From positions 47,882 through 111,881 of the forward strand of contig JBBQRQ010000002.1 in NCBI GenBank assembly GCA_038214755.1: DNA of 64,000 bases, in the 5' to 3' direction. Source of the DNA: Verrucomicrobiota bacterium (GTDB lineage: Bacteria > Verrucomicrobiota > Verrucomicrobiia > Limisphaerales > CANJXF01). The translations under genes and the position numbers were made by a program. Numbering within the stretch: position 1 is the first letter of the stretch; each line of letters opens with the position of its first letter. This document shows positions 3,665 to 62,195 of the stretch, piece after piece. Below the pieces are notes generated by a model. It saw only the letters and a list, made by a program, of their open reading frames with translations. It ran no database searches and was not told where the DNA came from.

Positions 3665-6121
3665 ATGCCAGCCATGAAACCTTTCCCCAATAAAGTTACG
3701 CTCCTGCTATTTACCTTTGTCCTGCTCCTGACGGGCGGCGCGGAAGCGGTGCGCGGGCAATCCGCCCTCGACGGTTTCGACCCGAACGCCAACGGCGAGG
3801 TCCGCGTCGTCGTCGTCCAACCGGACGGCAAGATTCTTCTCGGCGGCGATTTTACCACCCTCTCACCAAACGGCGGGGCGGCGGTCACGCGCAACCGCAT
3901 CGCGCGTTTCAACCCGGACGGAACGCTCGACACGGCTTTTAACCCGAACGCGAGCAATAATGTCTATTCAATCGCGTTGCAGTCGGACGGCAAGATTCTG
4001 GTCGGCGGCTTATTCGGCGGCGCGAACAGCATCGGCGGGGCGACGCGCAATTATATCGCGCGACTCAATGCGACAACCGGATTGGCTGATTCGTTTAACC
4101 CGAACGCGAACAATTCTGTCAATTCAATCGTGGTGCAGTCGGACGGGAAGATTCTGGTCGGCGGCGCATTCGGCGGCGCAAACGGCATCGGCGGGGCGAC
4201 GCGCAATCGTATCGCGCGACTCAGTGCCACAACCGGATTGGCTGATTCGTTTGACCCGAACGCGAACAATGTTGTCAATTCAATCGCGGTGCAGTCGGAC
4301 GGCAAGATTCTAGCGGGCGGCAATTTCTTCGGCGCAAACAGCATCGGTGGGGCGACGCGCAATCGTATCGCGCGACTCGATGCGGTGACCGGGTTGGCTG
4401 ATTCGTTTGACCCGAACGCGAACAGCACTGTCAATTCAATCGCGTTGCAGTCGGACGGGAAGATTCTCGTTGGCGGCTTTTTCAACGGCGCAAACAGCAT
4501 CGGCGGGGAAGCGCGCAATCGTATCGCGCGACTCAGTGCGACAACCGGATTGGCTGATTCGTTTGACCCGAACGCGAACAATGCTGTCGAATCAATCACG
4601 GTGCAGTCGGACGGGAAGATTCTCGTCGGCGGCTTTTTCATCGGCGCAAACAGCATCGGCGGGGCGACGCGCAATCGTATCGCGCGACTCGATGCGACAA
4701 CCGGATTGGCAGATTCGTTTGACCCGAACGCGAACAGTGTTGTCTATTCAATCGCGGTGCAGTCGGACGGCAAGATTCTGGTCGGCGGCTTATTCGTCGG
4801 CGCAAACGGCATCGGCGGAGCAACGCGTAATTATATCGCCCGACTCGAACGCGACGGTACGCTCGACAAGACGCTCGATCCGAATACGGTCGGCACTTTT
4901 GTTACCGCCACCGCCGTTCAGCCGGACGGCAAAGTCATCATCGGCGGCGATTTTACAAGCGTTCTCGGACAACCGCGCAATCGCATCGCCCGTTTGAACG
5001 CCGACGGAACGCTCGACACGGTTTTCAACCCGAACGCGAACAGTTCTGTCAATTCAATCGCGGTGCAGTCGGACGGCAAGATTCTGGTCGGGGGTACTTT
5101 CAGCGGCGCAAACAGCATCGGCGGAGCGACGCGCAATTATATCGCGCGACTCAGTGCGACAACCGGATTGGCTGATTCGTTTAACCCGAACGCGAACGAC
5201 ACTGTCTATTCAATCGCGGTGCAGTCGGACGGCAAGATTCTGGTCGGCGGCGTATTCGTCGGCGCAAACAGCATCGGCGGGGCGACGCGCAATCGTATCG
5301 CGCGAATAGATGCGGTGACCGGGTTGGCTGATTCGTTTGACCCGAACGCGAACGGCGTTGTCATATCAATCGCGGTGCAGTCGGACGGCAAGATTTTAGT
5401 GGGCGGCTTATTCAACGGCGCAAACGGCATCGGCGGAGCAACGCGCAATCGTATCGCGCGAATAGATGCGACAACCGGATTGGCTGATTCGTTTGACCCG
5501 AACGCGAACGCCATTGTCTATTCAATCGCGTTGCAGTCGGACGGCAAGATTCTGGCGGGCGGCGAATTCACCAACATCGGCGGACAGACGCGCAGCCTTT
5601 TCGCACGTTTGAGTAACGACACCGCCGCGCTGCAAAACCTCGCCGTGACCCAAACCACCATTACCTGGACGCGCGGCGGCTCCAGCCCGAAATTCGCGCG
5701 GGTTACCTTTGAGTATTCAACCGACAATGTGAACTACACTCCCTTGGGCAACGGCACGGCAGCCGGGAGCAACTGGACCCTGACAGGTTTGAGCCTCTCC
5801 ACCGGACAGAACATCTACCTCCGCGCGCGCGGTTATTATCGCAGCGGCTACCTCAACGGCTCGGAGAGCATCACGGAATCGGTGCGGAATGCGTTTCTGA
5901 GCGCGACGCTACAGCCGCTCTTGAATATCCAACGCAGCGCGAACACGAATGTCGTGCTGTCGTGGGCGACGAACTTCACCGGCTTCACCCTGGAGTCCAA
6001 CACCAACCTCAACACGAATGTCTGGAGCGTCGTCTCGCCCGCGCCCACTGTCAGCGGCACGAACAACGTTGTGACGAATGCCATCGGCGGATCGACGCGC
6101 TTCTACCGCTTGCGCCAATGA
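3665..6121 (+). CDS. Secreted delta-60 repeat domain protein
   Basis: Signal peptide MPAMKPFPNKVTLLLFTFVLLLTGGAEA. Twelve units of the type ARLxATTGLADSFDPNANxxVxSIAVQSDGKILVGGxFxGANSIGGATRNRI. C-terminal beta-rich domain ending ...STRFYRLRQ. The TTG at 3554 lies in a REP and is rejected as the start. Confidence 0.8.
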   Translation: MPAMKPFPNKVTLLLFTFVLLLTGGAEAVRGQSALDGFDPNANGEVRVVVVQPDGKILLGGDFTTLSPNGGAAVTRNRIARFNPDGTLDTAFNPNASNNVYSIALQSDGKILVGGLFGGANSIGGATRNYIARLNATTGLADSFNPNANNSVNSIVVQSDGKILVGGAFGGANGIGGATRNRIARLSATTGLADSFDPNANNVVNSIAVQSDGKILAGGNFFGANSIGGATRNRIARLDAVTGLADSFDPNANSTVNSIALQSDGKILVGGFFNGANSIGGEARNRIARLSATTGLADSFDPNANNAVESITVQSDGKILVGGFFIGANSIGGATRNRIARLDATTGLADSFDPNANSVVYSIAVQSDGKILVGGLFVGANGIGGATRNYIARLERDGTLDKTLDPNTVGTFVTATAVQPDGKVIIGGDFTSVLGQPRNRIARLNADGTLDTVFNPNANSSVNSIAVQSDGKILVGGTFSGANSIGGATRNYIARLSATTGLADSFNPNANDTVYSIAVQSDGKILVGGVFVGANSIGGATRNRIARIDAVTGLADSFDPNANGVVISIAVQSDGKILVGGLFNGANGIGGATRNRIARIDATTGLADSFDPNANAIVYSIALQSDGKILAGGEFTNIGGQTRSLFARLSNDTAALQNLAVTQTTITWTRGGSSPKFARVTFEYSTDNVNYTPLGNGTAAGSNWTLTGLSLSTGQNIYLRARGYYRSGYLNGSESITESVRNAFLSATLQPLLNIQRSANTNVVLSWATNFTGFTLESNTNLNTNVWSVVSPAPTVSGTNNVVTNAIGGSTRFYRLRQ
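3758..5601 (+). repeat. Twelve tandem coding repeats of about 156 bp (141-156 bp) inside the delta-60 gene
   Basis: Strings such as gattggctgattcgtttgacccgaacgcgaaca and gcagtcggacggcaagattct recur about every 156 bp with high nucleotide identity. Confidence 0.9.
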
Positions 6122-6124
6122 AAA

Positions 6125-6224
6125 GTAGGGCAGCGCGTCTCGCCTGCCCAGCTGAACGCGTCAGCGTGAGCGTAATGAAATTTTGTTTCCCACATGGGAA
6201 GGCAGGCTGGAAGCACTGCCCTAC
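6125..6224. repeat. REPIN-like inverted REP pair (GTAG-headed)
   Basis: gtagggcagcgcgtctcgcctgcc (from 6125) pairs imperfectly with ggcaggctggaagcactgccctac (6201-6224). It sits between two convergent genes. Confidence 0.75.
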
Positions 6225-31265: not shown

Positions 31266-32660
31266 TCAGTCTTCAGCGCGCTCGCCATGCGGCGCCATCT
31301 TCACGAGCTTCGGATCGAATTGGCCGATCGTTTCCACCAAGTCGGATTGCGCAGCCATGACCGTATGAATGTCTTTGTAAACCATCGGCGCTTCGTCAAG
31401 GCCAGCGGAAATGAGCGTCACTCCGCGTTCGCGCAGAAATTGATTCACTGCTTTCCAATTGAAAGTTTGCGACGCGCGAGTGCGGCTCATGACACGTCCC
31501 GCTCCATGCGAAGCAGAATGCAAAGATTCAGCATTCCCTTTTCCACGAACAACAAATCCGGGGGTCGCCATTGAGCCAGGGATTATTCCCAACACACCCG
31601 TGCCCGCTGGCGTGGCACCTTTGCGATGCACCACGACCTCACGCTCTACGCCCTCGATAACGTGCTTTTCTTTCCAGGCAAAGTTGTGGTGGTTTTCCAG
31701 ATCGAGCAAGACCTGCGCGCCGAGATTTTCCGCGATGTGTTTATGAATGCAGGCGTGATTCGCGGCGGCGTATTGTCCCATCAATTCCATCGCGTTCCAA
31801 TACTCCTGCCCTTCCTGCGAATCGAGCGACAACCACGCGAGCCGCTTCAATTCGCTCGGCAAATCGGGAAACTGGCTGAACGCGATCTTGCTGTAGTAAT
31901 CGCAGACCGACGCGCCTGTGCCGCGACTCCCGCTGTGTGACAGCAACGCCACATAAGTGCCCGGTTCCAATTCGTTGATTTTCGAGTGCGCCGTGAATAG
32001 ACCAAACTCGACAAAATGATTGCCGCTGCCGCTCGTGCCGAGTTGCGACCACGCGCGGTCTTTGTTTTGTTTCGTAATTGGACTGACCGACCAGTCCGCG
32101 TCGAGCACGCCGTGGTGGCGACGCTCCTTGAAATTCGCGCCGATGCCGAAGCGCGTCTCCGCTTCGATGGCGCGCGTGAGCCGGTCCTGCTTGCGTTCCA
32201 GATCGCGCAACGGCAGATCGAGCACCGTCATCTTCATGCGGCACGCGATGTCCACACCAACGGCGTAAGGAATCACCGCGTTCTCGGTGGCCAGCACGCC
32301 GCCGATGGGCAGGCCGTAGCCCACATGCGCGTCCGGCATGAGCGCGCCCGCCACCGAGATCGGCAACAGACACGCCTTTTCCATCTGCATCACCGCCTCA
32401 TGTTCCAAACCTTCGCCCCATTGCCGATACTTCACCGGCTCGGCGCGCGGCGGCGGTGGCGCATGGAGCAACGCCTTCGCAAGCTCGCCGCGCAATGCGT
32501 CATCCACGAACGCCGCCGGATTGGCGACAATGGCCGCGACATCTTCGTGCAACCGCGACTTGTCGCCGCCGCCGAGGATAAACTTGCAAACAAAATCCGT
32601 CGCGCGCCGGGTGGCCTCGCCGAGCGGAACTCCCGTTCGTAAAAAATCTTTCGCATTCAT
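31266..32660 (-). CDS. rtcB: RNA-splicing ligase RtcB
   Basis: MPDAHVGYGLPIGGV, GSGNHF, HSGSRGTG, NHHNFAW and HGAGR motifs. Confidence 0.92.
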   Translation of the reverse strand: MNAKDFLRTGVPLGEATRRATDFVCKFILGGGDKSRLHEDVAAIVANPAAFVDDALRGELAKALLHAPPPPRAEPVKYRQWGEGLEHEAVMQMEKACLLPISVAGALMPDAHVGYGLPIGGVLATENAVIPYAVGVDIACRMKMTVLDLPLRDLERKQDRLTRAIEAETRFGIGANFKERRHHGVLDADWSVSPITKQNKDRAWSQLGTSGSGNHFVEFGLFTAHSKINELEPGTYVALLSHSGSRGTGASVCDYYSKIAFSQFPDLPSELKRLAWLSLDSQEGQEYWNAMELMGQYAAANHACIHKHIAENLGAQVLLDLENHHNFAWKEKHVIEGVEREVVVHRKGATPAGTGVLGIIPGSMATPGFVVRGKGNAESLHSASHGAGRVMSRTRASQTFNWKAVNQFLRERGVTLISAGLDEAPMVYKDIHTVMAAQSDLVETIGQFDPKLVKMAPHGERAED

Positions 32661-32694
32661 AACAAAATTGCTTCTCCCGGTTTGAGGCGGAAAC

Positions 32695-33987
32695 TCACTT
32701 TTGCGCCTTGCTCAACTCCGATTCGATCTCCTCGACCGTCGGCAGGCTGCCCTTCAGATTCTTCGGCAGGGATTCGACGAGCTTGGTCTGCCATTGCGCG
32801 ACGCCGATGGGCTTCTTCAAATCGCGCAACGCATATTCCACCGTCAAGTTGTCGCGCTCCTTGCACAGCAACAGTCCGATAGACGGCTTGTCATCTGCGT
32901 GACGCAACTGATCGTCCACGGCGGAGAGATAGAAATTCATTTTACCGGCGAACTCCGGCTCAAAGGCTTTCATCTTCAAATCGATCACCACGTAGCTGCG
33001 CAACCGCAGATGATAGAACAACAGGTCGAGATAATAATCCTGCCCGCCAATTTCCAGGTGAAACTGCCGTCCCACGAACGCAAACCCGACGCCGAGCTGA
33101 AGCAGGAACTTCTGGATGTGATCCAGCAAACCCAATTCAAGGTCGCGCTCATGCGCGTCGGCGCGGAGCGTGAGGAAATCGAAGGTGTAAGGGTCTTTGA
33201 GCGTCTGCTCGGCCAGATCGGATTGCACCGGCGGCAACGTGCGCTGGAAGTTCGTAACCGCCTTGCCTTCGCGTTTGTGCAATTGCGCTTCGATGTGGTG
33301 CGTCAGCACCGCGCGTGACCAGCCATGCTCGACGGCTTTGCGCGCATACCAAAGGCGGTCAGCGGCGGATTCGAGTTTTTGCAGCAACACAATGTTGTGA
33401 CCCCACGGCAGCGAAGCCATTGGTTCGGGCGGAGCGGCAAATTCTGTTGCAGGCTGTGACAGTTTTTGCGCCGGGAATTCTCTTACAGCTTGTGAGAGAA
33501 TCTGCGGTTCGGATTCTCCAAGTCGCTGAGGAAGAATCGCCTCCTCCGGCAATTGTCGCACAAGCTGTGCGACAATTGCCGAACCCGACTGAGCAGCCGC
33601 CTTTTTCCCGCCGCCCGGTAATTGTCGCACAGGTTGTGCGACAATTGCGTTCGCCGGTGCATAACCCAGGAAGAACGCCCTCATGCGATAAAGATTCTTG
33701 CGAGAAAATCCTGCCATCTCGGGGAACTCCTCGGTCAAGTCATGCGAGAGGCGATCAAGCACGCGGTCGCCCCATTTGTGCGTTTTCTGTTGTTCAACGA
33801 TGGCTCTGCCAATGTCCCAATACAACGCGATCAGCTCGCGATTGACGGAAACCGCCGCGCGAAGTTGCGACGCGCGGACGCGCATCTTGAGGTCGGCGAG
33901 AATGGTGGCGTAATCGGCAGGCAATGCGCTGGACGCTTTGCCGCCGATGGCTTTTGCCAAGCTGATGGTTGATTTCTTTTTCGCCAT
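32695..33987 (-). CDS. yhcG: PDDEXK nuclease domain protein (YhcG/DUF1016 family)
   Basis: LPWGHNIVLL, then YYLDLLFYHLRLRSYVVIDLKMKAFEPEFAGKMNFYLSAVDD (PD-ExK core). Confidence 0.85.
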   Translation of the reverse strand: MAKKKSTISLAKAIGGKASSALPADYATILADLKMRVRASQLRAAVSVNRELIALYWDIGRAIVEQQKTHKWGDRVLDRLSHDLTEEFPEMAGFSRKNLYRMRAFFLGYAPANAIVAQPVRQLPGGGKKAAAQSGSAIVAQLVRQLPEEAILPQRLGESEPQILSQAVREFPAQKLSQPATEFAAPPEPMASLPWGHNIVLLQKLESAADRLWYARKAVEHGWSRAVLTHHIEAQLHKREGKAVTNFQRTLPPVQSDLAEQTLKDPYTFDFLTLRADAHERDLELGLLDHIQKFLLQLGVGFAFVGRQFHLEIGGQDYYLDLLFYHLRLRSYVVIDLKMKAFEPEFAGKMNFYLSAVDDQLRHADDKPSIGLLLCKERDNLTVEYALRDLKKPIGVAQWQTKLVESLPKNLKGSLPTVEEIESELSKAQK

Positions 33988-34151
33988 ACCCAGAGTTAGC
34001 CGGTGATTCCTGGTTGATGATGTTAAAGGTGGATTGGGTTGAAAAGCCTTTCCAAACGGGCAGCTTCACCCAGCGGCACACCGAGAGGAATAAAATCTTT
34101 AGTGTTCATGAAAAATGCGTTTCAACAGGAACAGTGCCACCACCACCAAGC

Positions 34152-35285
34152 TCACGCTATCGCTTGGCGCAATTCGCCCGGCGAAACAATTGAAAGTTTC
34201 AGCCTATCCTGAACCCGCTCATACGCCGGGCCGTTCAATGGGCTGACCACATAGTTTTTCCCTTTTGGATACTGTTCGCGAAACGCCGCCAGCCCGCGCG
34301 TTTCAAACGCATCCGCTTTCCATTTGCATTCGATGGCGTCAACGGCATCGCGGCCGCGCGGCACGACGAAGTCCACTTCGCGCTGCTGTTTGTCGCGCCA
34401 GAAATGAATCTTCGGCAGATTGGCGGCGATAAGGGTGTCCAGCACGAGATGCTCCCACAACACGCCGCAATCCTCCGTTCGCAAATGATCCCAGCCGCGC
34501 GCGTGGCAGACCAACCCCGTGTCAAAACCGAACACCTTCGGCTGCGCCACGATCTCCCGCCGCCCGCCTGCTGAAAACGGACGCACCAAATGCGCCACAT
34601 GCGTGATCTGATAAACCTCCAGCCAGTTCGTGACGGCAGGCCGGCTGATCTGGCTTTCGGCGGCCAGCTTCGTCACGTCCAGCATCCCGCCGCTTTGGCG
34701 CATCAACAATTCCAGCACGCGCAGAAAACCGGCGCGTTTCTCCAGCCGGAAAAGCTCCTGGACGTCGCGCGCGAAATAGGAATCCTGCCACTCGGCGTAG
34801 AATTCTGGATTGTGTTTCTCCGCGAGCAGCGCGGGCGGCAATCCCCCGCGCAACAAACGTTCCCGCAAATCCGTCACGCCGAACGCCGCCAATTCCTCGT
34901 GCAACACCGGCACCAGCTGCACCACCCGCTTGCGCCCCGTCAGGCTGTCGCGGAACTTTTGCGTGGCCGCGAGCGTGGACGAACCCGTCGCCAGGATTTT
35001 CAATTTGGGAAAATCATCCGCGCCAATCTTCAACAGCCGGCTTGGATCGGGAAGCTGATGCACCTCGTCGAACACCACCAGCCGCTTTTTCACGGAACGG
35101 AAAAAACTCTCCGGATCGCGCAGCCGTTCCGCCACGCTGGGCAGGTCGCAGTTGAGAAACTCCGCGTCGGGAAAGCTCTGCGCCAGCACCGTCTTGCCCG
35201 CGCGCCGCGGCCCGCTCAGCCAGACAATGGACGCCTGTTTCCACGCGGCGACGAGCCGTTCAGTCCAAAAAGGTCGGTCAATCAT
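34152..35285 (-). CDS. AAA ATPase with DUF4143 C-terminal domain
   Basis: Walker A GPRRAGKT, Walker B VVFDEVH, and C-terminus REVDFVVPRGRDAVDAIECKW. Confidence 0.8.
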   Translation of the reverse strand: MIDRPFWTERLVAAWKQASIVWLSGPRRAGKTVLAQSFPDAEFLNCDLPSVAERLRDPESFFRSVKKRLVVFDEVHQLPDPSRLLKIGADDFPKLKILATGSSTLAATQKFRDSLTGRKRVVQLVPVLHEELAAFGVTDLRERLLRGGLPPALLAEKHNPEFYAEWQDSYFARDVQELFRLEKRAGFLRVLELLMRQSGGMLDVTKLAAESQISRPAVTNWLEVYQITHVAHLVRPFSAGGRREIVAQPKVFGFDTGLVCHARGWDHLRTEDCGVLWEHLVLDTLIAANLPKIHFWRDKQQREVDFVVPRGRDAVDAIECKWKADAFETRGLAAFREQYPKGKNYVVSPLNGPAYERVQDRLKLSIVSPGELRQAIA

Positions 35286-35420
35286 GGCAGGCAGACTTTA
35301 CGTTTAGACGGCTAAAAGTAAAGTCTGGATTCGGCGCGCGGCGTTTACGCCGCTTCAACTCCCGGCTGTTGAGCGCCGCAGAGATGCCTCACGATGTCGT
35401 GCGGTGAAGCGGACTGAACT

Positions 35421-35653
35421 TTGAATCCCAACGGGATTCCAGCGTTCAGCCAAAGGTTGCGACGAAGGAGCTATCTTGGGTTCGCATCCCAAAATATCCA
35501 CAACCCCAACGCGGGTTGCATCGTTTTCATTTATCCGTTTCTGATTCACGGGCGGACGCAACTCCTTCAGAGTTGAAATTCTTTTTTCACGTTTTCCCAG
35601 GGTAGCTCGTTCCTCGCAACCTTGGGCTGACTGACGAAATCCCGTTGGGATTT
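35421..35653. repeat. MITE-like palindromic element, copy 1
   Basis: The ends are aatcccaacgggatt / aatcccgttgggatt. Subterminal arms are ggttgcgacgaaggagctatc / gtagctcgttcctcgcaacc. Internal hairpins are caaccccaacgcgggttg and caactccttcagagttg. It is homologous to 44444-44716. Confidence 0.8.
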
Positions 35654-35664
35654 TCAAAAGCATG

Positions 35665-35762
35665 AGCCGTCGCGCGCCGCGTGGCTTCACCCGGCGGCAC
35701 GTCTTGGCGCGCCGAAGTTGGACGCAAGGGGGGACGAGACGGAGAAAATCTTTGGCGTTCAT
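35665..35762 (-). pseudogene. Remnant of an rtcB-like 5' end
   Basis: atgaacgccaaagattttctccgt (MNAKDFLR) and gaagccacgcggcgcgcgacgg (EATRRAT) match rtcB codons 1-8 and 15-21 at 32660. The two matches are out of frame with each other, and the remnant is cut off by the MITE. Confidence 0.6.
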
Positions 35763-35832
35763 GTCAAACAAGGGTCGTCCTCCCATTCGAGAACTTGCGC
35801 GTTCGTCGCCCCCGTCATGTCAGCCCACGTTT

Positions 35833-36573
35833 TCACAACCAAATGTCCGTTCCTGCGGCGAGCCAGTTCGGAACCATCTTCTGATGCTGCCAGTGTTCGC
35901 TTTGCTGCACCTTCTCCACAAACTCCGGACGGACCAGTTTGGCGCGGCCTGTCACATAGCCGTCGGCCTCACTGCGAACGTAAAGTCCTTCCATCAAATT
36001 GTCGGTCTTGCCCGTGATTGGATTTTCAAAAGCGCTGTCAAACGCCGATGGCACGATGAGCGATTCCAGTTCGTCTGCCTTGGCGCGACCGCGATGAACG
36101 ATAGGCACAGTATGAAGGCCGGTTCCGTCCAACATTCGCTGACGAGCGGCGAGGTCGAGAAACTGCCCGGCGTCCTTGTCGTAAATGTCGAACTCGAAAA
36201 AGTAATGCGGTAGCTTGCAATAGTGGACGGAGTGCTTCGCGTAGAGCCATTCGCCGTAGAGGATAAACTGATTACCGAGCATTCCTTCGAGGACTGGGCG
36301 CTTCACCGAAGTCCACTGCTTGAAGAGATCATATTGCGGATGCATGCCCTCGGTAATTTCGTGACCACGGCATTGCAGCACCATGCGTCCACGGGACGTG
36401 AAATGAATTCCAACGTTCGTGCCATCAATCTTCTCCGCCACAATCAACGAAGGGTCCGCGATCAACCTCTCAGATTCTTTTTGGCCAAGATGTTTGTCGC
36501 CAGCAGTTCCCTTCGACCCGAACAGATGCGGTGTGCGTGGGTATTTGATAAAATCATCGCGGGTCGCTCCCAT
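35833..36573 (-). CDS. ATP-dependent RNA ligase family protein (nucleotidyltransferase KxDGxN)
   Basis: KYPRTPHL, then motif [14 protein letters not shown], plus [12 protein letters not shown] and FFEFDIY motifs. Confidence 0.65.
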
Positions 36574-36639
36574 AGCAGTAATCGAGTTTGGTTGAATTAA
36601 GTTGGGAGAGCGAGCTTTGACGCCCGCTCTCCCGTTGTT

Positions 36640-36735
36640 TCATTCGTTCAAGAACAGTTTCCACTCCGTGATGCCGTGGGCGTTGCGGAGGAGCGCCGTG
36701 ACCGGCAGTTTCCCGCCTTGCGCGACCGTGGTACG
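36640..36735 (-). pseudogene. 3'-terminal remnant of a second HNH endonuclease gene
   Basis: The minus strand reads ..GKLPVTALLRNAHGITEWKLFLNE*. This is about 85% nt identical to the 3' end of the HNH ORF at 38065-38160 (..ELPVTALIRNAHGIAEWKLFLNA*). Confidence 0.65.
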
Positions 36736-36738
36736 TTT

Positions 36739-37986
36739 TCACAGACAAGACCACGGGAGCGCCGTCACCTTGTCGTGTATTTGCAGCGGCTGACGGCAGC
36801 GGCAAATGATGTAGGCGTGCTTCGCGTGTTTCGGATGTTCACCCAAGAACGTCAGGAGATGACGCGCGTCGGAGAGCGTCGGGTTCTCCGTCCATTTCAC
36901 TTCAATCGGCGTCAGGCCGCCTTCGCGCTGGATGATGAAGTCCACTTCCGCGCCGTCATGGGTGCGGAGGTAATGCAACGTGCCCGTGCCAAGGTATTGC
37001 AGGCGTTTCCAAAGTTCGACTCCCACCCATTGCTCGAAGAGCGGGCCGGGATTCGCCAGCACCACATCGGTGTTGGGCCGCAACCCGGCGGCGGCGTGGC
37101 GGATGCCGAGGTCGAAGAACAGGAAGCGGTCGGTGGAGAGCAGATTTTTTCGCGGGCTGCCGGAATATGCTGGCAGACGGAAGCCGAGAAACATGTCTTC
37201 CAAAAGCTGGTAGTGGCTCTTGATGGTCGGCACGGACAGGCCTACGTCCTTGGAAATTTTGTGGTAGTTCACCATCTGCCCGGACTCGACGGCGGCGAAG
37301 CGCAGGAAGCGCACGAACGCGGGCCAGTCCTTCACCATCGCTTCGCGCCGCATTTCCTCCTCCAGATGAAGTTGCGTGTAGGCGTGCAACATCTCGGCGC
37401 GATGCGCTTCGTCAGCGGTGACGACGCCCGGGAGTTCGCCGAAGGCGAGTCGTGTGAGCAGGTCGGCGCGCGGAAATGGTTTCGTCGGGCGCTTCCCGTC
37501 CGGCCAGTCGAGCGGCAACGGCGGCGGGGCGTCAAACTCAGCGGGCGATTCGGCAGGCGGGCGTTCAGTCAGCGTGAGCGGAAAAAGGCGGTGCAAAAAG
37601 CTGCGGCCCGGCAGAAGGTTCGCGCCGGTCTGCCGCAACTTGCGCGCGGAACTGCCGCAGAGGATGAACCGCCAGCGTTTCTTGTCTCCGTCGTAAAGAT
37701 GCTGCACGGCGTCGAACAGCGCGGGCACGTTTTGCGCCTCGTCCACGAACACCCACGCGCCGCCTTCGCGCTGTCGCAGGCCACGGCAAAGTGCGATGAG
37801 GTCGTCCGGGTGGTTGAGATATTGCGCCCGCACCTTCGGAATGGAGAGGTCAATGCGCGCGGCGTGCGGCGGCAGGAGATTCTGAATGAGGGTGGATTTG
37901 CCCGTCTGCCGCGCGCCGAACACGATATGCACATACGGGGCGGCGAACTTCTTTCGCCAAAGGGATTCGGGCCAGCGGGTGAACAC
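36739..37986 (-). CDS. AAA ATPase with DUF4143 C-terminal domain (second paralog)
   Basis: Walker A GARQTGKST, Walker B VFVDEAQ, and C-terminus AEVDFIIQREGGLTPIEVKW. GTG start. Confidence 0.8.
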   Translation of the reverse strand: MFTRWPESLWRKKFAAPYVHIVFGARQTGKSTLIQNLLPPHAARIDLSIPKVRAQYLNHPDDLIALCRGLRQREGGAWVFVDEAQNVPALFDAVQHLYDGDKKRWRFILCGSSARKLRQTGANLLPGRSFLHRLFPLTLTERPPAESPAEFDAPPPLPLDWPDGKRPTKPFPRADLLTRLAFGELPGVVTADEAHRAEMLHAYTQLHLEEEMRREAMVKDWPAFVRFLRFAAVESGQMVNYHKISKDVGLSVPTIKSHYQLLEDMFLGFRLPAYSGSPRKNLLSTDRFLFFDLGIRHAAAGLRPNTDVVLANPGPLFEQWVGVELWKRLQYLGTGTLHYLRTHDGAEVDFIIQREGGLTPIEVKWTENPTLSDARHLLTFLGEHPKHAKHAYIICRCRQPLQIHDKVTALPWSCL

Positions 37987-38064
37987 GGCTTGGTTTTAAT
38001 CGCCTGTTATTGAAAGTCAACTTTCAATAACAGGCGTTTAATGAAAACGCGATTCGCGCGCACC

Positions 38065-38367
38065 TCAGGCATTGAGGAACAGTTTCCACTCCGCGATGCC
38101 GTGCGCGTTTCGGATGAGCGCCGTCACCGGCAGTTCCTTCGGCGCGCGCGGAACGTTGAGCAATTTCAATACGGCTTCGTGCGGCAGGCGGTTGCCCTTT
38201 TTCGAGTTCACCGCTTTGTTCGCCCAGACGCAATTCTCCCACGCATCTTTTCCGCCGCGCGAACGTGGCAGGATATGATCGATACTGCCTTCCTCCGGCT
38301 TCAGAATTTTGCCGGTGTATTGGACCAGCCTCCCGGAATTGAATGGTGCGGCAACCGGGAGTTGCAC
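38065..38367 (-). pseudogene. HNH endonuclease, probably 5'-truncated
   Basis: HNH core DHILPRSRGGKDAWENCVWANKAVNSKKGN. The ORF is only 100 aa with no ATG (forced GTG), and its 5' end overlaps the tRNA-like minihelix (38344-38398). Confidence 0.6.
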
Positions 38368-38398
38368 CCGGACGAACGGAAGACTTGCAGGTCGCCGC
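38344..38398 (-). ncRNA. tRNA-like minihelix (acceptor stem plus T-arm plus CCA)
   Basis: The minus strand reads GCGGCGA-(20 nt)-CCGGG TGCAACT CCCGG-TTGCCGC-A-CCA. There is no D arm, and the anticodon-like hairpin (GAC CTGCAA GTC) is degenerate. Confidence 0.35.
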
Positions 38399-38466
38399 CT
38401 GGGCTACTCGGCTAATAGGACATCAATCGTTACTCTCGGAAGTAATGATCGCGCCGACTTCCGTCA

Positions 38467-38712
38467 TAGCAGCCAGACTGCAATCAACAATTTTTGAAAG
38501 CTGCGTCCTGAGCCGCACGAACAAAGATCGTTGCGTCCGAGCTTTTCATGAAGCTCCTTAGTTCCATAAACGATGCGGGAACCTTTTTTCAAGCGAGTTT
38601 CCGATGGATACCCTTTGCGACGTTTGCTGGTGATCTCGAAAAAACGGGCTGTCTTGATGAACCGATTGATTTCCCTTACGGCCTCCGGCTTAGGGGTTGT
38701 GGTTGTGAATAA
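38467..38712 (-). pseudogene. C-terminal fragment of a SEC-C-motif protein
   Basis: Open frame without a start: ...[52 protein letters not shown]. GRNDxCxCGSGxxF is the SEC-C metal-binding motif, with the terminal Cys pair lost. Confidence 0.5.
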
Positions 38713-38890
38713 CTAATGCTTGAAATTTTTTCCTTCTAACGCGACAACAGAACTGCGCGACGAACAGCTTTGATCCAAATACCGGCTTTGAGATCTTTGT
38801 GCCGGGGCGTGGATTGCTCCTCGGAGCAGTATTCCGCTTGCGGAAGCGCCTATCTCCTTTGAGCGTTCGCCGCGCATTTACTTTTTGAAT

Positions 38891-38967
38891 TGGTCAGGAA
38901 GCCGGCATTTGCACGCGGACCGTCTCCTTCACAGGGAGAGATGCTGCTAATTACACCACGATCCTGA
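38891..38967 (-). ncRNA. Degenerate tRNA-like module (anticodon loop CTGTGAA, His-like) with encoded CCA
   Basis: About 75% identical to the module at 39065-39138. Anticodon stem TCTCC/GGAGA, T-loop TGCAAAT, eroded T stem, and an acceptor out of register by 1 nt. Confidence 0.35.
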
Positions 38968-38972
38968 TTTGA

Positions 38973-39057
38973 GCGCGGAACGCAGAACGCGGAACGCGGA
39001 AAGAAAAACTCGCGCGCGATTGATCTGATTTCCACGTTCCGCATTCCGAGTTCCGCG
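38973..39057. repeat. Long imperfect hairpin whose arms are four tandem heptamers (GCGGAAC type)
   Basis: gcggaac gcagaac gcggaac gcggaaa, a loop of about 25 nt, then tttccac gttccgc attccga gttccgc. Confidence 0.8.
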
Positions 39058-39064
39058 TTTGAAA

Positions 39065-39138
39065 TGCTCCCACGTGGACTTGCACCACGAACCTTCTCCT
39101 TCGCAGGGAGACATGCAGTTCTATTACACCTTGAGAGC
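39065..39138 (-). ncRNA. tRNA-like cloverleaf (anticodon GCG, Arg-like) with a non-canonical T-loop
   Basis: 74 nt: acceptor GCTCTCA/TGGGAGC, D stem GTGT/GCAT, D loop AATAGAACT (no GG), anticodon stem TCTCC/GGAGA with loop CTGCGAA, V loop AGGTT, T stem CGTGG/CCACG, T loop TGCAAGT. CCA is not encoded. Confidence 0.4.
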
Positions 39139-39143
39139 GGAAA

Positions 39144-39235
39144 GAAATTTACGATTTACGAATGACGATTTACGCGGGCAAATCCAAATCGTCAGCCGAC
39201 TCGTAAATCGTAAATCCAAAATCGTAAATCGAAAT
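39144..39235. repeat. Long imperfect hairpin whose arms are tandem heptamers (ATTTACG type)
   Basis: atttacg atttacg aatgacg atttacg, a loop of about 27 nt, then cgtaaat cgtaaat ccaaaat cgtaaat. Confidence 0.8.
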
Positions 39236-39263
39236 GGTATCCGTGGCCGGACTTGCACCGGCT
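39236..39263 (-). other. tRNA 3'-fragment-like sequence (T-arm, acceptor 3' strand, CCA)
   Basis: The minus strand reads GCCGG TGCAAGT CCGGC CACGGAT A CCA. No matching 5' half is present. Confidence 0.35.
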
Positions 39264-39379
39264 AGGTGGTGGAGATGAAGCGGTCGCGGAAACGTTTTAA
39301 AACGTCGCAAATAAAAGGAGCGGCATGACGGTGAATGAGTTGTTGATATTTTTCATAGCGGGAAAGTGGCCGGAACCCT

Positions 39380-39446
39380 CCACCGTTTCGAGTCTTTTCG
39401 TCGGCCTGCGCTACGCTCCGGCCTCCTCCAAGACTCGAAACGGTGG
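39380..39446. repeat. Hairpin with 17-nt arms
   Basis: ccaccgtttcgagtctt pairs with aagactcgaaacggtgg across a 33-nt GC-rich loop. Confidence 0.75.
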
Positions 39447-39457
39447 GAAGAATAAAT

Positions 39458-39498
39458 CACTGAAGGTTTGATCGCACACACTGAAGGTTTGATCGCAC
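39458..39498. repeat. Tandem direct repeat, two copies of 20 nt
   Basis: cactgaaggtttgatcgcac occurs twice, separated by 1 nt. Confidence 0.85.
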
Positions 39499-39541
39499 CG
39501 CGACAGCTACAAATCTGAGTCGTGGCGACGGCGCGCTGCTC

Positions 39542-39612
39542 GTAGCCGCCGACGTGAGGAGGCGGATTCCGATCGGAAAACCACGAAACCGCCTCCTCAC
39601 GTCAGCGGCTAC
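39542..39612. repeat. REPIN-like inverted REP pair (GTAG..GACGTGAGGAGG family)
   Basis: gtagccgccgacgtgaggaggcgg pairs with ccgcctcctcacgtcagcggctac. It is related to the pair at 3521-3606. Confidence 0.85.
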
Positions 39613-39659
39613 AACTTATGAAATTTTGATGGAGCGCGAACCAGATTTTTCCCGGAGAT

Positions 39660-40058
39660 TTATTCCTTTTTCTTTTTGAAAAATCTTGGGCCAGCCTCGC
39701 CTTGTCGTTGTTGAACTTTGAGTTGGCCAAGAATGGAGACCCAACCGATAAAAATTTTATGCCATTGATTTTCCATGCTGCGGATGACGCCATCGGCCAT
39801 TTCGCTGAGGTAGCGAATGGAGGGCGCGCTCGAGATCAGGGCGAGGACGTCTTCCTTGGTCGGGGAGGGGCATTCCACGGAAGCGAGGATCAACTCCATT
39901 TCCTGAACGATGACGCTTTTGACTTCGAGGAATTGGATCTCGTCTTCGCTGCTGAATTTTTTTGAGCGGGCGAGGTTGACGAAATAATTAAATTGCTTGA
40001 GGCATTCCAAATAATTTTCCAACTGCAGGATGAGTTGTTCGTGGTCTTGGTGGCGCAT
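39660..40058 (-). CDS. Hypothetical protein
   Basis: ATG at 40058. It is the last gene of the response-regulator operon and has a C-terminal basic tail. Confidence 0.5.
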   Translation of the reverse strand: MRHQDHEQLILQLENYLECLKQFNYFVNLARSKKFSSEDEIQFLEVKSVIVQEMELILASVECPSPTKEDVLALISSAPSIRYLSEMADGVIRSMENQWHKIFIGWVSILGQLKVQQRQGEAGPRFFKKKKE

Positions 40059-40063
40059 AAAAT

Positions 40064-40366
40064 TTAATCGTTGTAGGGCTGAAGTCCTTTTGGTTTGAGA
40101 AAAATAATGGCTCCGCCGCGAAGCTCGCGCGCGGTGATTTTAAAGCCGCCATAACGCACGATAATTTCGGACAGAGGCAAAGCGGCCTTGCGCGCATCCT
40201 GGAATACGCCCAAAACGGTGCCGCTGATCTCGCCCATGTATTTTTGGGAGAAGGAATGCGGCAAGGTCGAGGCGAGCAAACGGCCCAGCGCATCGACGGT
40301 GAAACTGCCCGAAGGCAACCGCGCCAGTTTCGGAATCGGTTTGGAAAAAATATTTAAGAAGCCCAT
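40064..40366 (-). CDS. Hypothetical protein
   Basis: ATG at 40366 (MGFLNIFSKPIPKL...). It overlaps the response-regulator stop by 13 nt. Confidence 0.5.
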   Translation of the reverse strand: MGFLNIFSKPIPKLARLPSGSFTVDALGRLLASTLPHSFSQKYMGEISGTVLGVFQDARKAALPLSEIIVRYGGFKITARELRGGAIIFLKPKGLQPYND

Positions 40367-41430
40367 TTGATTGAGATGTTTTTTAAGGTTTCGTAAAGTT
40401 GGTCCGCGCTCAACGTGCGCTTGAATCCAACGCAAAGTTCCGTGTCGCCGCGCGAGGCGATTCCTATGTGCCGCTGCAATCCCAGCCCTTCAACCTGCTT
40501 TAAATCGCCCGCCTGCAATTTTTCTCCGAGGTCGCGCAAGCGTTTTTGGGTTTGTCGGGTCCACGCCGCGACCGGGCTGGAATTTTCCAGTCCCCAGGAA
40601 TCCGGCGCGGCTTTTTGATCGGCGGGAACGGTCATGACAAATTCCACGCCATCGATGCGCGAGAGAGCGGCCAGCGGGGAGCGCGTCAAAAATTTCGTGT
40701 CGCACGCGGCGGTTTGCGCGGAGGATTCCGAACCTTTATTCTCGTCAAAGGCCTGGGCGAAATCCAGAAGCAATCCTTGATAGGGAGTTAAGATCACCCG
40801 CACATGGTCCGGTTCACCAGGCAAAATCTCGAAGCTGCCATTTTTCCACGACAAAATTTCTTTGAAAGCTGCTTCGCCACTCATGGTCAAGGTCGCCGCA
40901 TCCATCACTTCGCCATCCGTCACCCAAATATTTCCCTGCCGGCCTTCCTTCGTGATTTTCAAAACAGAGGAACTGTGCGAGAGACATTCCAATTGGATCA
41001 GATCAACCAGGCTCTTGCTTTGGATTCCGCGAAACCCGTTATCGACCTGCTGGCCGAGCAAGGATTCGATGCACTCGCGGAACAGATTTATTTCCTCTGA
41101 CGTGCTGGGCTTTTCCCAAAATAAATCGATGCCCATGGCGTAAGCGCGAGTCCGATATTGTTCATCGACCACCGCCGTCATCACGACGATTCGCAGTTGA
41201 GGAAATTTCCGGCGCACGATGGAGAGCACTTGCAGTCCATCCATCTTGGGCATCCGCAAATCAGAAATGAGCATCGTAAACGGCTCGGATTCCAGTATGG
41301 CAATGGCGCGCGCGCCGGAAGTGGAGGTGTGGATTTCCGGCTGGCTGGGCAATTGCCGGAGGACCTCCTGAAACAAATCGAGCAAGTCCTGCTCATCATC
41401 CAGCAGTAAAATTTTATGGGGTTGGGACAT
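40354..41430 (-). CDS. Response regulator (receiver domain) with a DUF4388 domain
   Basis: REC motifs KILLLDDE, ISDLRMPKMDG and VVMTA. DUF4388-like segment LVDLIQLECLSHSSSVLKITKEGRQGNIWVTDGEVMDA...GEAAFKEILSWKNGSFEI. Confidence 0.8.
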   Translation of the reverse strand: MSQPHKILLLDDEQDLLDLFQEVLRQLPSQPEIHTSTSGARAIAILESEPFTMLISDLRMPKMDGLQVLSIVRRKFPQLRIVVMTAVVDEQYRTRAYAMGIDLFWEKPSTSEEINLFRECIESLLGQQVDNGFRGIQSKSLVDLIQLECLSHSSSVLKITKEGRQGNIWVTDGEVMDAATLTMSGEAAFKEILSWKNGSFEILPGEPDHVRVILTPYQGLLLDFAQAFDENKGSESSAQTAACDTKFLTRSPLAALSRIDGVEFVMTVPADQKAAPDSWGLENSSPVAAWTRQTQKRLRDLGEKLQAGDLKQVEGLGLQRHIGIASRGDTELCVGFKRTLSADQLYETLKNISIKWAS

Positions 41431-44884: not shown

Positions 44885-45727
44885 TTATTCTGCCGGCGTT
44901 TCGCCAACTTGGAAACGCACAAAACTGCGAATGACGATGTCGTCGCCGAGTTGCTTGGTCACGGCGCCGATATGTTCCTTGACCGAAATTTCAGAATTCT
45001 TTTTCACGAAACCCTGATCGAGCAGGCAATTGGTCTGATAAAACTTTTCCAACTTGCCTTCGATAATTTTAGCGACGGCTTGCGGCGGTTTGCCTTTGAC
45101 TTGTTCCCCGGCGATTTCTTTTTCCTTCGCGATTACGACCGGATTCACGTCAGCGCGCGTGACCACGGAGGGATGAGCCGCCGCGATTTGCAACGTGATG
45201 TCGCGCACGAGTTGTTTGAATTCTTCGCTCGCCACCGTTTGCTCCTTCCCCGCGCCGACTTCCACCAGCACTCCCACTTTTGCGCCGGTGTGAATATAAG
45301 CGGCGACCAATCCGCTGCCAGTCACTTCAATGCGATGGAACCTGGAAATTTTTATGTTCTCGCCAATCTTCGCAATTTGCGCGGCGCGGTCGGCTTCCAA
45401 ATCCACCTGAGGATTGGCCGCGGTTTTTTTTGCCGCTTCATCGCAGAAGGCGCGGAAACTTTCGTTGCGCGCGACGAAATCCGTCTCGCAATTAATTTCA
45501 ACGAGCACGCCAACTTTTGCGCCGGGCTGGATGTGTTGAGCGATGACGCCTTCATGGGCGGCGCGGGTCGCTTTTTTCGCAGCGGAGGCCGCCCCGCGTT
45601 TCCGCAAGAGATCGACTGCGGTGTCCAGATCTCCTCGCGCTTCGGTCAGAGCTTTTTTGCAATCCATCAAACCGGCGTTGGTCATTTCGCGCAGCTTGCC
45701 CACTGATGCAGCAGTAATTTCAGTCAT
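44885..45727 (-). CDS. tsf: Translation elongation factor Ts
   Basis: VGKLREMTNAGLMDCKKALTEARGDLDTAVDLLRKRG N-terminal UBA-like motif. Confidence 0.92.
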   Translation of the reverse strand: MTEITAASVGKLREMTNAGLMDCKKALTEARGDLDTAVDLLRKRGAASAAKKATRAAHEGVIAQHIQPGAKVGVLVEINCETDFVARNESFRAFCDEAAKKTAANPQVDLEADRAAQIAKIGENIKISRFHRIEVTGSGLVAAYIHTGAKVGVLVEVGAGKEQTVASEEFKQLVRDITLQIAAAHPSVVTRADVNPVVIAKEKEIAGEQVKGKPPQAVAKIIEGKLEKFYQTNCLLDQGFVKKNSEISVKEHIGAVTKQLGDDIVIRSFVRFQVGETPAE

Positions 45728-45800: not shown

Positions 45801-46604
45801 CTAAGCGGTCACGGGAGTTTCCACCGGAGCTTCCACTGTGGCGGGAGCCGGAGTCGCCGGCGTAGAGGCCGCGTCCTGAGCCGCGGCCGTTTCGGTTTTG
45901 CGACGAGCATGTTTGGAATCAAATTCCGCTTTCGCCTGAACAATCGTTTGCACGACCGTCGCCAAAATTACGCGCACGGAGCGAATCGCGTCGTCGTTGG
46001 CCGCAATGGGGTGATCAATTAAATCAGGATCACAATTGGTATCGACAATGGCGACGATGGGAATTTTCAAACGGCGCGCTTCGGCAATCGCGTTGTGTTC
46101 GCGCTTGATGTCCACGACAAACATCGCGGAAGGAAATTTGTCCATCACGCGAATGCCGTCCAAATTTTTGAAAAGGCGAACGGCTTCACGGCGGTAAACG
46201 GCCTGTTCCTGTTTGCCGTATTGATTGATGCTGCCGTCGGCTTCCATTTTCTCGATCTGTTTCATGCGAGCGATGGAGCGCTTGACCGTTTGAAAATTCG
46301 TCAGCGTGCCGCCCAGCCAGCGTTCGGTGATGTAAAGTTGTCCACAGCCTTTGGCGGATTCTTTGATCGCTTCCTGCGCCTGCTTTTTTGTGCCGACGAA
46401 CAAAATATTTCCGCCCTTGCTGATGGTCTGCTGCAAAAAATTGCAAGCCGCTTCGAGCTGCGAAAGAGTTTTACTGAGGTCGATGATGTGAATGCCGTTG
46501 CGGGCATCGAAAATGAAAGGCTTCATCTTCGGGTTCCAACGCTTTGTCTGGTGTCCGAAATGAACGCCCGCATCCAATAATTCTTTTACGCCAATACTGA
46601 TCAC
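45801..46604 (-). CDS. rpsB: 30S ribosomal protein S2
   Basis: LLDAGVHFGHQTKRWNPKM and FVVDIKREHNAIAEARRLKIPIVAIVDTNCDP. GTG start. Confidence 0.92.
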   Translation of the reverse strand: MISIGVKELLDAGVHFGHQTKRWNPKMKPFIFDARNGIHIIDLSKTLSQLEAACNFLQQTISKGGNILFVGTKKQAQEAIKESAKGCGQLYITERWLGGTLTNFQTVKRSIARMKQIEKMEADGSINQYGKQEQAVYRREAVRLFKNLDGIRVMDKFPSAMFVVDIKREHNAIAEARRLKIPIVAIVDTNCDPDLIDHPIAANDDAIRSVRVILATVVQTIVQAKAEFDSKHARRKTETAAAQDAASTPATPAPATVEAPVETPVTA

Positions 46605-62042: not shown

Positions 62043-62195
62043 GTAGCATCTGCCTCCGGCGGGTGCGACCTGAATTCGAGGTTCGATGTTGGATGTTCGA
62101 TGTTGGATGTTCGATGTTAATTGTTTTCTAAACATCGAACACTGAACATCCAACATCGAATTGGTAAATCCGCACCTGCCGGAGGCAGATGCTAT
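62043..62195. repeat. REPIN-like pair (GTAGCATCTGCCTCCGGCGGGTGCGA family) enclosing a heptamer-arm hairpin
   Basis: Outer arms are gtagcatctgcctccggcgggtgcga and cgcacctgccggaggcagatgctat. Inside, ttcgatg ttggatg ttcgatg ttggatg ttcgatg pairs with aacatcg aacactg aacatcc aacatcg. Confidence 0.85.

Follow-up and report, generated by a model that had tools for sequence, protein, structure and literature searches.

Long tRNA arrays (L-arrays) spread horizontally between bacteria, and Verrucomicrobia are among the phyla that carry them (Santamaria-Gomez et al. 2021, PMC8421152). These arrays have a conserved HNH endonuclease gene at their side, and rtcB and other RNA-processing genes are enriched in their neighbourhood (PMC8421152). 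An example is the trn operon on pCC7120delta of Anabaena sp. PCC 7120 (PMC8421152; Tran et al. 2016, PMC4758250), which stays silent until translational stress and shares its regulation with the HNH gene and rtcB; aminoacylation was seen for 23 of its 26 tRNAs, and all array tRNAs that were tested proved to be on polysomes (PMC8421152). It has been suggested that RtcB and the array tRNAs maintain the tRNA pool jointly, with the array tRNAs perhaps acting as sponges for toxin RNases (PMC8421152). Here we analyse a 64-kb stretch of a Verrucomicrobiota contig (the window), in which four tRNA-like modules with an unusual T-loop lie beside RNA-repair genes. We conclude, with a probability of roughly 0.85, that the modules are the remnants of a long, horizontally transferred L-array sited beside those genes, and that their common G55 is a trait of the tRNA class to which the array belongs.

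Phage T4 uses Pnkp/Rnl tRNA repair to counter PrrC. Clusters of tRNA genes with repair enzymes are found in other phages, including jumbo-phage sets (PMC7824862), and resemble the loci described below in combining tRNA arrays with RtcB or an RNA ligase and with HNH. Operons of Rsr, YrlA and RtcB are described from Salmonella and Deinococcus (Chen et al. 2014, PMC4201824; Hughes et al. 2020, PMC7790460), and Y RNAs, which contain tRNA-like domains, occur beside Ro60 in bacteria and phages (PMC4201824). As to the tRNA elbow, reviews call the G18:psi55 contact the most universally conserved contact in tRNA (PMC7912444). A non-proteinogenic tRNA-Gly of Staphylococcus, which serves cell-wall synthesis, is without the G18/G19 and U55/C56 elbow contacts (PMC4574755).

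Four tRNA modules in the window

The tRNA-like elements of the window, with the modules numbered from the low-coordinate end, are:

39312-38344, minus strand: four tRNA-like modules, each with a T-loop TGCAA(G/A/C)T
39235-39263, minus strand: module 4, 3' stub of tRNA-Glu(UUC), comprising the end of the variable region, T-arm GCCGG/TGCAAGT/CCGGC, acceptor CACGGAT and ACCA
39138-39065, minus strand: module 3, intact tRNA-Arg(GCG) of the A18:G55 class, with A8, D-loop AATAGAACT, T-loop TGCAAGT and no encoded CCA
38966-38891, minus strand: module 2, disabled tRNA-His(GUG) of the A18:G55 class, ARAGORN His(gtg)
38421-38344, minus strand: module 1, rearranged relic with the 5' part of tRNA-Cys(GCA) and a foreign T-arm, acceptor 3' strand and ACCA

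An earlier note on this DNA, made from its letters alone, had reported four minus-strand modules with an odd T-arm here, and all four are present. The motif GGTGCAAVTCC has three exact matches in the 64-kb window (38358-38368, 39076-39086 and 39249-39259), all within 902 bp of the minus strand, against a chance expectation, by our own estimate, of ~0.09 exact matches per 128 kb of two-strand sequence; the fourth module (module 2) has a TGCAAAT T-loop inside a broken stem. A covariance model, R1, was built from 106 tRNAs of the G55 type and run unfiltered over the whole window at E<0.01. It returned exactly the four modules and no other match, with scores of 47.7, 35.9, 23.1 and 17.8 bits. None of them has the canonical elbow (G18 G19 with T54 psi55 C56): G55 is present in all four modules, and the D-loops carry A18 G19. 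The D-loops of modules 3, 2 and 1 read AATAG, AATTAG and AGTAG, with AG where the earlier note had rightly found no GG, and the corresponding T-loops are TGCAAGT, TGCAAAT and TGCAACT. These three modules have the combination by which we define the A18:G55 class, namely G55 with A18 and a retained G19:C56; module 4 has no D-arm.

Module 3 forms the complete cloverleaf with anticodon GCG that the earlier note had drawn. Its minimum-energy fold is a cloverleaf, and it scores 47.7 bits with R1 and 48.4 bits with the Rfam tRNA model (RF00005, gathering score 29 bits), being the only module to reach the gathering score; modules 1 and 4 have no Rfam match at all. Of the finders that had been proposed as checks, ARAGORN called module 2 in the window and did not call module 3 (39065-39138), while the Rfam gathering-threshold pass over the full 64-kb window reported no tRNA, module 3 being detected in a search of a 2.7-kb slice. 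A sigma-70 promoter scan of the region found nothing, a result that is uninformative for this phylum. With one intact gene and three remnants over ~1 kb, as against the ~20 or more (up to 43) densely packed genes of an L-array, the window copy is a four-piece relic and not an array.

The A18:G55 tRNA class

A pattern search of viral contigs found phage-type tRNA arrays in which tRNAs with TGC(A/G)A T-loops have D-loops like AATAG, not AATGG. In a reciprocal test the viral contigs were searched with a common A18 D-arm, TAGCTCAATAGTAGAGC, and the T-loops were then read: N54-G55-C56 was present in 60 of 77 unique tRNAs and TTC in only 4. Unique tRNAs of the same loci that were not seeds comprised 701 with GG/T55, 17 with GG/G55, 78 with AG/G55 and 18 with AG/T55, an association between positions 18 and 55 with an odds ratio of 179 (p=1e-73). 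The class of 106 unique members covers 18 amino-acid specificities. Its alignment is a cloverleaf with compensatory change at 20 of 21 pairs, and its commonest T-loops include TGCAAAT, TGCAAGT and TGCAACT, the three found in the window. Judged from these sequences, the G18:psi55 contact is replaced by A18:G55, with G19:C56 retained, in this class of array tRNAs. Because the replacement covaries across hundreds of tRNAs we regard A18:G55 as an alternative elbow and not as decay; the earlier note's argument that the shared G55 did not arise by independent decay of ordinary tRNA genes therefore holds, G55 being a class trait that covaries with A18.

Literature searches on A18/G55, phage tRNA elbows and 18-55 covariation found no description of A18:G55, and the class is apparently undescribed. 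It differs from the Staphylococcus tRNA-Gly, a single-purpose tRNA in which the elbow pair is lost, in having a full anticodon set, a covarying replacement and an intact G19:C56 pair; no Fem-type transferase was found near the locus. Members of the class are common in viral-classified contigs, and in one of these contigs modules 2 and 3 and the HNH gene all have orthologues. In contrast, BLAST searches of cultured phages with module 3 and with a common A18:G55 tRNA retrieved canonical tRNAs only, and the class was not evident in the three cultured-phage arrays inspected, which are fully canonical. A search of viral contigs with the D-arm GGTGTAATAGAACTGCA, together with a metagenome pattern scan, gave a single phage population, that of contig L094, and otherwise only chance matches in coding sequence. 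The tRNAs retrieved from the host lineage (Lys, Ala) are fully canonical, as are all 27 tRNAs in 1.17 Mb of cellular loci.

G55 as a general trait of L-arrays was considered and rejected, since G55 is absent from all 92 tRNAs of three further plasmid L-arrays that are linked to HNH; in the Anabaena array it is found in 2 of ~22, Glu(CUC) and Ile(GAU). The operonic tRNA-Ile(GAU) of Anabaena, which has G55 by our reading, is charged in vivo and shows aberrant gel mobility (PMC8421152).

The 19:56 pair also seems to covary. T-loops of the form TTT(G/A)A, with U56, are accompanied by D-loops with GA and not GG (L115, L159, L162, L164 and L174), and A56 or G56 in some array tRNAs of two contigs introduced below is matched by changes in the D-loop (L219 7933-8006; L211 1-75, 173-248 and 8083-8158).

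Colinear loci and the probable remains of a repair operon

The closest counterparts of the locus are bacterial. L211 is a 304-kb Verrucomicrobiota contig that encodes an RNA ligase 85% identical in amino acid (aa) sequence to the window copy. Its gene order starts with a tRNA cluster, RtcB (376 aa), more tRNAs with Y-RNA-like elements, a 327-aa open reading frame (ORF) and a SEC-C gene, and continues with Rsr/TROVE, DUF5677, ~16 tRNAs, HNH (202 aa), RNA ligase, an HD+AAA_33 kinase and RtcB (464 aa). R1 matches ~27 tRNAs in L211 at 46-78 bits, in three dense clusters with spacers of 1-9 nucleotides (nt); G55 is present in 24 of the 27 matches, and the other three, with T55, are located in the Y-RNA-like region. 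ARAGORN recovers 17 of these ~27 tRNAs. A second contig, L212, has two tRNAs immediately ahead of an HNH, ligase, kinase and RtcB block ordered as in L211, and a third, L219, from an NCBI metagenome-assembled genome (MAG), has a partly eroded version of the locus. The window and L211 are colinear over the following segments:

Window 39138-39066, L211 2100-2173: tRNA-Arg(GCG), 85%
Window 38705-38485, L211 4144-4363: SEC-C gene, 73%
Window 38415-38385, L211 7770-7800: 5' half of tRNA-Cys, 87%
Window 38323-38070, L211 9676-9929: 3' half of HNH, 80%
Window 36710-35778, L211 9864-10796: RNA ligase, 83%
Window 32660-31266, L211 11849-13243: RtcB, 79%

The tRNA order is Glu, Arg, Thr, His in L211 and Glu stub, hairpin, Arg, hairpin, His in the window. 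Missing from the window relative to L211 are the Y-RNA-like region, the 327-aa ORF, rsr, DUF5677, ~16 tRNAs, the first ~116 codons of HNH and the kinase; gained are two DUF4143 ATPase genes and a YhcG nuclease gene.

Each module finds its own counterpart outside the window. Module 4 (R1 17.8 bits, E=0.0017) gives a model match that reaches 39312, but the 5' half is unrecognisable. Its last 32 nt align with L211:2067-2098, with an identical CACGGAT acceptor strand and compensated changes in the T-stem, and this counterpart is tRNA-Glu(UUC), which immediately precedes tRNA-Arg(GCG). Module 3 is 85% identical to L211:2100-2177, the acceptor and T arms being nearly identical and the anticodon-stem changes compensated. 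It has a further orthologue in the viral contig L094 (4469-4545), in which A8 G9, the D-arm, the anticodon loop and the variable loop are identical and the changes in the acceptor, anticodon and T stems are compensated. A8, where U8 is the rule, resembles a defect but is kept in all three of these tRNA-Arg(GCG) genes.

Module 2, which ARAGORN calls as tRNA-His(GTG), scores only 19.2 bits with Rfam and 35.9 bits with R1. It is ~88% identical to L219:1249-1323, including the unusual acceptor, and the differences in the anticodon stem are compensated. The sole uncompensated differences from this orthologue are G52>C and C61>G, and because these destroy pairs 52-62 and 53-61 of the T-stem we consider module 2 to be a pseudogene. 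The identification as a His-like gene with an encoded CCA in the earlier note stands, as tRNA-His(GUG); the acceptor that it read as slipped (CAGGATC / CTTCCTG + ACCA) is native, being common to the L219 orthologue. The tRNA-His genes of two contigs (L211 2270-2344 and L219 1250-1323) have C33 in place of U33.

Module 1 had been taken for an acceptor stem, T-arm and CCA only. It extends to 38421, matches R1 with 23.1 bits across the full model length, and is no mini-helix: its 5' part contains an acceptor strand, a D-arm (GCCG/AGTAGCCC/AGGC) and the Cys anticodon loop CTGCAAG, and positions 38415-38385 are 87% identical to L211:7770-7800, part of tRNA-Cys. The two acceptor strands are incompatible, as GTCCTAT cannot pair with TTGCCGC. 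A deletion that runs from one gene of a tandem array into another would be expected to leave such a fusion. Exact searches of viral contigs with the 3' ends of modules 1 and 4 gave no match. We attribute the odd T-loop shared by the modules to membership of the whole array in the A18:G55 class, and not to copying of one module from another or to selection for a mimic.

Like described L-arrays, the Verrucomicrobial array has dozens of packed, supernumerary tRNA genes for most amino acids, a short-arm tRNA-Leu, a linked HNH gene and rtcB nearby, together with a patchy distribution and frequent insertions, deletions and pseudogenes. A protein search with HNH of L211 finds the all8564 locus of Anabaena, and because of this, and because short-arm tRNA-Leu is common to both, we identify the Verrucomicrobial locus as an L-array. 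The window retains the corresponding neighbours in its HNH fragment, RNA ligase and RtcB. In two respects the array is unlike other L-arrays: A18:G55 is found in 24 of 27 L211 tRNAs, compared with 2 of ~22 in Anabaena and none of the 92 from plasmids, and the L211 array sits in a repair locus with Rsr, Y-RNA-like RNAs, an ATP-dependent RNA ligase, a kinase and two RtcB genes. The tRNA-Leu genes of the arrays all have short variable arms. A Gln-like array tRNA at L211 9173-9247 has the loop TTCTAAC, with anticodon CUA reading UAG, where its L212 orthologue (169-243) has CUG; the L211 tRNA may be a natural amber suppressor, or else its gene is in decay.

The patchy distribution is seen at the site itself. 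The window is part of a Verrucomicrobiota chromosome of the order Limisphaerales, on the evidence of a response-regulator gene (40354-41430) with 79-85% identity to genes of Limisphaerales and Verrucomicrobiota MAGs. It also contains two ORFs, 45801-46604 and 44885-45727, which from their translations we take to be ribosomal protein S2 (rpsB) and EF-Ts (tsf). In eight relatives, synteny running through MglA-like and Roadblock genes to a 132-aa gene ends at window position ~39660-39709, and beyond the break their sequence is unmatched in the window. The syntenic site of these eight relatives, whose flanking genes are 79-85% identical, has neither a tRNA nor a G55 motif; the array is absent from it in all of them.

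Like the Rsr/YrlA/RtcB operons, L211 has TROVE, RtcB and sub-threshold Y RNAs near the array, its Rfam search giving, besides tRNAs, matches below threshold to Deinococcus_Y_RNA (50 bits) and YrlA (43 and 39 bits). Candidate Verrucomicrobial Y RNAs lie amid the tRNA array at L211 2348-2482, 2884-2996 and 3861-3970, with TROVE/Ro60 (Rsr) at 4559-6208. The tRNA-like domains of Y RNAs keep a canonical T-loop with psi55, unlike the class described here, and the three T55 matches of L211 fall in the Y-RNA-like region. The window modules are tRNAs or tRNA fragments, not Y RNAs. No YrlA or Y_RNA covariance-model match was found in 37500-40200 at E<=10, and a Pfam scan of nine genes, from 31266 to 40435, found no TROVE domain. 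The genes around the modules are:

38485-38705, minus strand: homologue of a small SEC-C-motif gene, with no evident start codon
38065-38367, minus strand: 5'-truncated HNH endonuclease gene, ~residues 117-202 of the 202-aa orthologue (Pfam HNH_4, HNH_5, HNH)
36739-37986, minus strand: DUF4143/AAA_14 ATPase gene, inserted between HNH and RNA ligase and absent from L211 and L212
35833-36573, minus strand: intact RNA ligase (PF09414), with 78-87% aa identity across many Verrucomicrobiota
32695-35771, minus strand: inserted block with a second DUF4143 ATPase (34152-35285) and a YhcG/DUF1016 nuclease (32695-33987)
31266-32660, minus strand: intact RtcB RNA ligase, 464 aa (Pfam RtcB), last gene of the HNH, Rnl, kinase, RtcB operon

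The SEC-C homologue is 73% identical by blastn to L211:4144-4363, where Pfam identifies SEC-C and where the gene lies between the Y-RNA-like region and rsr. The region, which the earlier note described as having no intact ORF, does contain mechanical ORFs, and one of them is the truncated HNH gene (38065-38367), with 80% nucleotide identity to L211:9676-9929 and L212:672-925. A supposed loss of zinc-binding cysteines in this gene was withdrawn when the full-length L211 orthologue proved to have the same QYTG and VWSNK motifs. The HD+AAA_33 kinase gene, which follows the ligase in L211 and L212, is deleted in the window, and the window RtcB gene is 79% identical in nucleotides to L211:11849-13243 over its full length. 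The modules had been placed downstream of nuclease and ligase genes, whereas on the coding strand they lie upstream. The earlier note was right to point to these neighbours; the link of the modules to repair genes is real, yet historical for this genome.

Both insertions are flanked by repeats. The ATPase gene at 36739-37986 is bracketed by 71-nt direct repeats (36640-36710 and 38065-38135, 86% identical) that are copies of the HNH 3' end. The initial ~45-100 nt of rtcB are present three times (32588-32660, 34063-34109 and 35667-35771), bracketing the second ATPase and the YhcG nuclease. These repeat-flanked blocks look like cassette insertions with unusually long target duplications. GC content is higher at 32-38 kb of the window, adjoining the modules.

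The RNA ligase (PF09414) and HD+AAA_33 kinase are kept as a pair across Verrucomicrobiota in otherwise unrelated neighbourhoods (L217/L218 9062-12766; L214-L216; L221/L222), sometimes accompanied by RlaP nucleotidyltransferases. Ligase and kinase make up an RNA-repair pair in their own right, and only some genomes add the array, HNH and RtcB to it.

Hairpins with imperfect arms of 22-41 nt, several of them with short internal repeats, occur in intergenic regions across the whole window:

39147-39229: imperfect hairpin of CGTAAAT-type units, between modules 4 and 3
38974-39057: imperfect hairpin of GCGGAAC units, at the place of tRNA-Thr(CGU) in L211
223-320, 2148-2224, 2956-3073, 3521-3606, 7272-7390, 8316-8383: further hairpins
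37996-38041, 39380-39446, 39542-39612, 62073-62162: further hairpins

The first of these looks inserted, because the orthologous Glu and Arg tRNAs of L211 are only 1 nt apart. The hairpins may be mobile elements resembling repetitive extragenic palindromes or miniature inverted-repeat transposable elements (REP/MITE-like) rather than plain terminators. Between two hairpins upstream of the array, at 39458-39498, a 20-nt unit, CACTGAAGGTTTGATCGCAC, is perfectly duplicated in tandem with a spacing of 21.

Origin of the modules and significance of the class

In the intact locus of related Verrucomicrobiota, the array has genes for Rsr (Ro60) and Y-RNA-like RNAs at its side and is followed directly by the operon of HNH, RNA ligase, HD/AAA_33 kinase and RtcB. 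Comparison suggests that in the window genome deletions took about two dozen tRNA genes, rsr, the Y-RNA-like region, the kinase and half of HNH, and that the ATPase and nuclease cassettes and the hairpin elements were inserted. The survivors would be the intact Arg(GCG), a His gene disabled by point changes, the 5' half of a Cys gene joined to a 3' end unrelated to it, and the Glu 3' stub. Of the four, at most tRNA-Arg(GCG) could still be functional, and if so it would be redundant with a housekeeping tRNA-Arg. By analogy with the Anabaena L-array and phage modules, an intact array would probably supply a second, inducible set of chargeable tRNAs, with RtcB, the RNA ligase and the kinase resealing cut tRNAs under translational stress or an attack on the housekeeping pool, Rsr and Y RNA handling damaged RNA, and HNH promoting the spread of the locus.

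Some points weigh against this account. The R1 score of module 3 (47.7 bits) lies below the 57-85 bits of training-set members and, with the loss of its encoded CCA, suggests that this gene may be inactive too. L211, L212 and L219 are metagenome assemblies, none of them from a very close relative (ligase ~85% aa identity). The direction of change is read from comparison, and gene gain in L211 in place of loss in the window is possible; loss is favoured because the HNH gene is truncated and the Cys fusion is mismatched. A function for the Verrucomicrobial array tRNAs is argued from the expression and aminoacylation evidence in Anabaena, and any benefit of the A18:G55 elbow is speculation.

Direct deposition of the array by a phage, which would make the locus a prophage remnant not inherited together with the resident RNA-repair genes, fares best among the alternatives but is improbable. 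The 83-kb viral-classified contig L094 is the closest non-cellular match, with a tRNA-Arg(GCG) that has the A8, D-arm and anticodon loop of module 3, and the same phage population (L205) has a tRNA-His similar to module 2 and encodes a 191-aa HNH protein 40% identical to the window HNH ORF (38065-38367). Moreover, A18:G55 tRNAs are frequent in IMG/VR tRNA arrays, and jumbo phages pair tRNA arrays with RtcB, Rnl, HNH and TROVE proteins (PMC7824862). However, the locus contains no phage structural genes, no further gene of the island matched the L094/L205 phage, and a pattern search of viral contigs with the HNH fragment gave no confirmed relative. RNA ligase and RtcB are 78-87% conserved in Verrucomicrobiota, the ligase being at most 30% identical to cultured-phage ligases, and the window is colinear with bacterial L211 and L212 at 73-87% nucleotide identity, much closer than to the viral contig. 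Unlike phage clusters, the window, L211, L212 and L219 look chromosomal, the window having rpsB and tsf and no virion genes. A reading of the locus as the relic of a prophage tRNA array was demoted once the contexts of the RNA ligase revealed these closer, colinear loci. An older phage origin of the whole L-array family is compatible with the eroded L-array that we favour.

We give little credence to the idea, combining readings offered in the earlier note, that the modules descend from one diverged founder and are locally selected tRNA mimics, decoys or repair substrates working with the neighbouring ligase and nuclease. In its favour, all four modules carry G55 and adjoin the RNA ligase and RtcB genes, the D-stem and anticodon arm are common to modules 2 and 3, and a sponge role against toxin RNases has been proposed for L-array tRNAs (PMC8421152). 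Nevertheless, each module is closer (85-88%) to an outside orthologue of distinct amino-acid identity than to its neighbours, and the four correspond to Glu, Arg, His and Cys genes in the order of the L211 array, which does not support the copying of a single founder. Selection for a mimic fits poorly with three broken modules (T-stem mispairs, a non-pairing acceptor and a missing 5' half) beside a truncated HNH gene, and G55 is accounted for by A18 covariation in complete tRNA sets. A decoy or repair-substrate role can fairly be proposed for the ancestral system in its intact state, though not for what is left of it here.

The weakest alternative, that the fragments are attachment-site scars of integrative elements targeting a tRNA gene, draws on two modules being 3' tRNA ends with CCA, on a locus at a synteny break beside the higher-GC 32-38 kb and on the known integration into tRNA T-loops (PMC1762012), but we find it highly implausible: there is no integrase or recombinase among the nine scanned genes (31266-40435), the relatives have no tRNA at the site, each fragment maps to its own L211 array gene, and the 3' fragments are not repeats of the intact tRNA 3' end, differing from module 3 in T-stem and acceptor, and so are not attachment-site duplications.

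Locally, the eroded L-array is an ordinary relic of a known kind of element in a decaying accessory locus, and nothing suggests a special function for the remnants. What appears new is an L-array variant in which nearly all tRNAs are A18:G55 and which is embedded in an Rsr/RtcB/ligase locus, for which we found no description. An elbow lacking both psi55 (G55) and Gm18 (A18) might, speculatively, be a poor target for enzymes that read the canonical elbow; the tRNase CdiA-CT E479, for instance, cleaves in the T-loop beside psi55 (PMC9086364). More broadly, and only tentatively, the A18:G55 tRNAs could be a parallel set with a distinct elbow, carried on mobile arrays of uncultured phages and Verrucomicrobial L-arrays and deployed with Rsr/Y RNA, RtcB, ligase and kinase. 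The elbow would evade factors that recognise the canonical T-loop and D-loop, translation would go on while the housekeeping tRNAs are being cut and repaired, and what the window preserves would be the fossil of one such system.

The class exposes a clean tertiary covariation, from G18:psi55 to A18:G55, across complete tRNA sets, and its elbow-orthogonal scaffold may possibly be useful in tRNA engineering. As G55-type tRNAs are under-called by standard finders, arrays of this kind are probably under-annotated. The Verrucomicrobial loci tie L-arrays physically to a full RNA-repair locus (Rsr, Y RNA, two RtcB, RNA ligase and kinase), and make joint buffering of attacks on tRNA by array tRNAs and RtcB testable.

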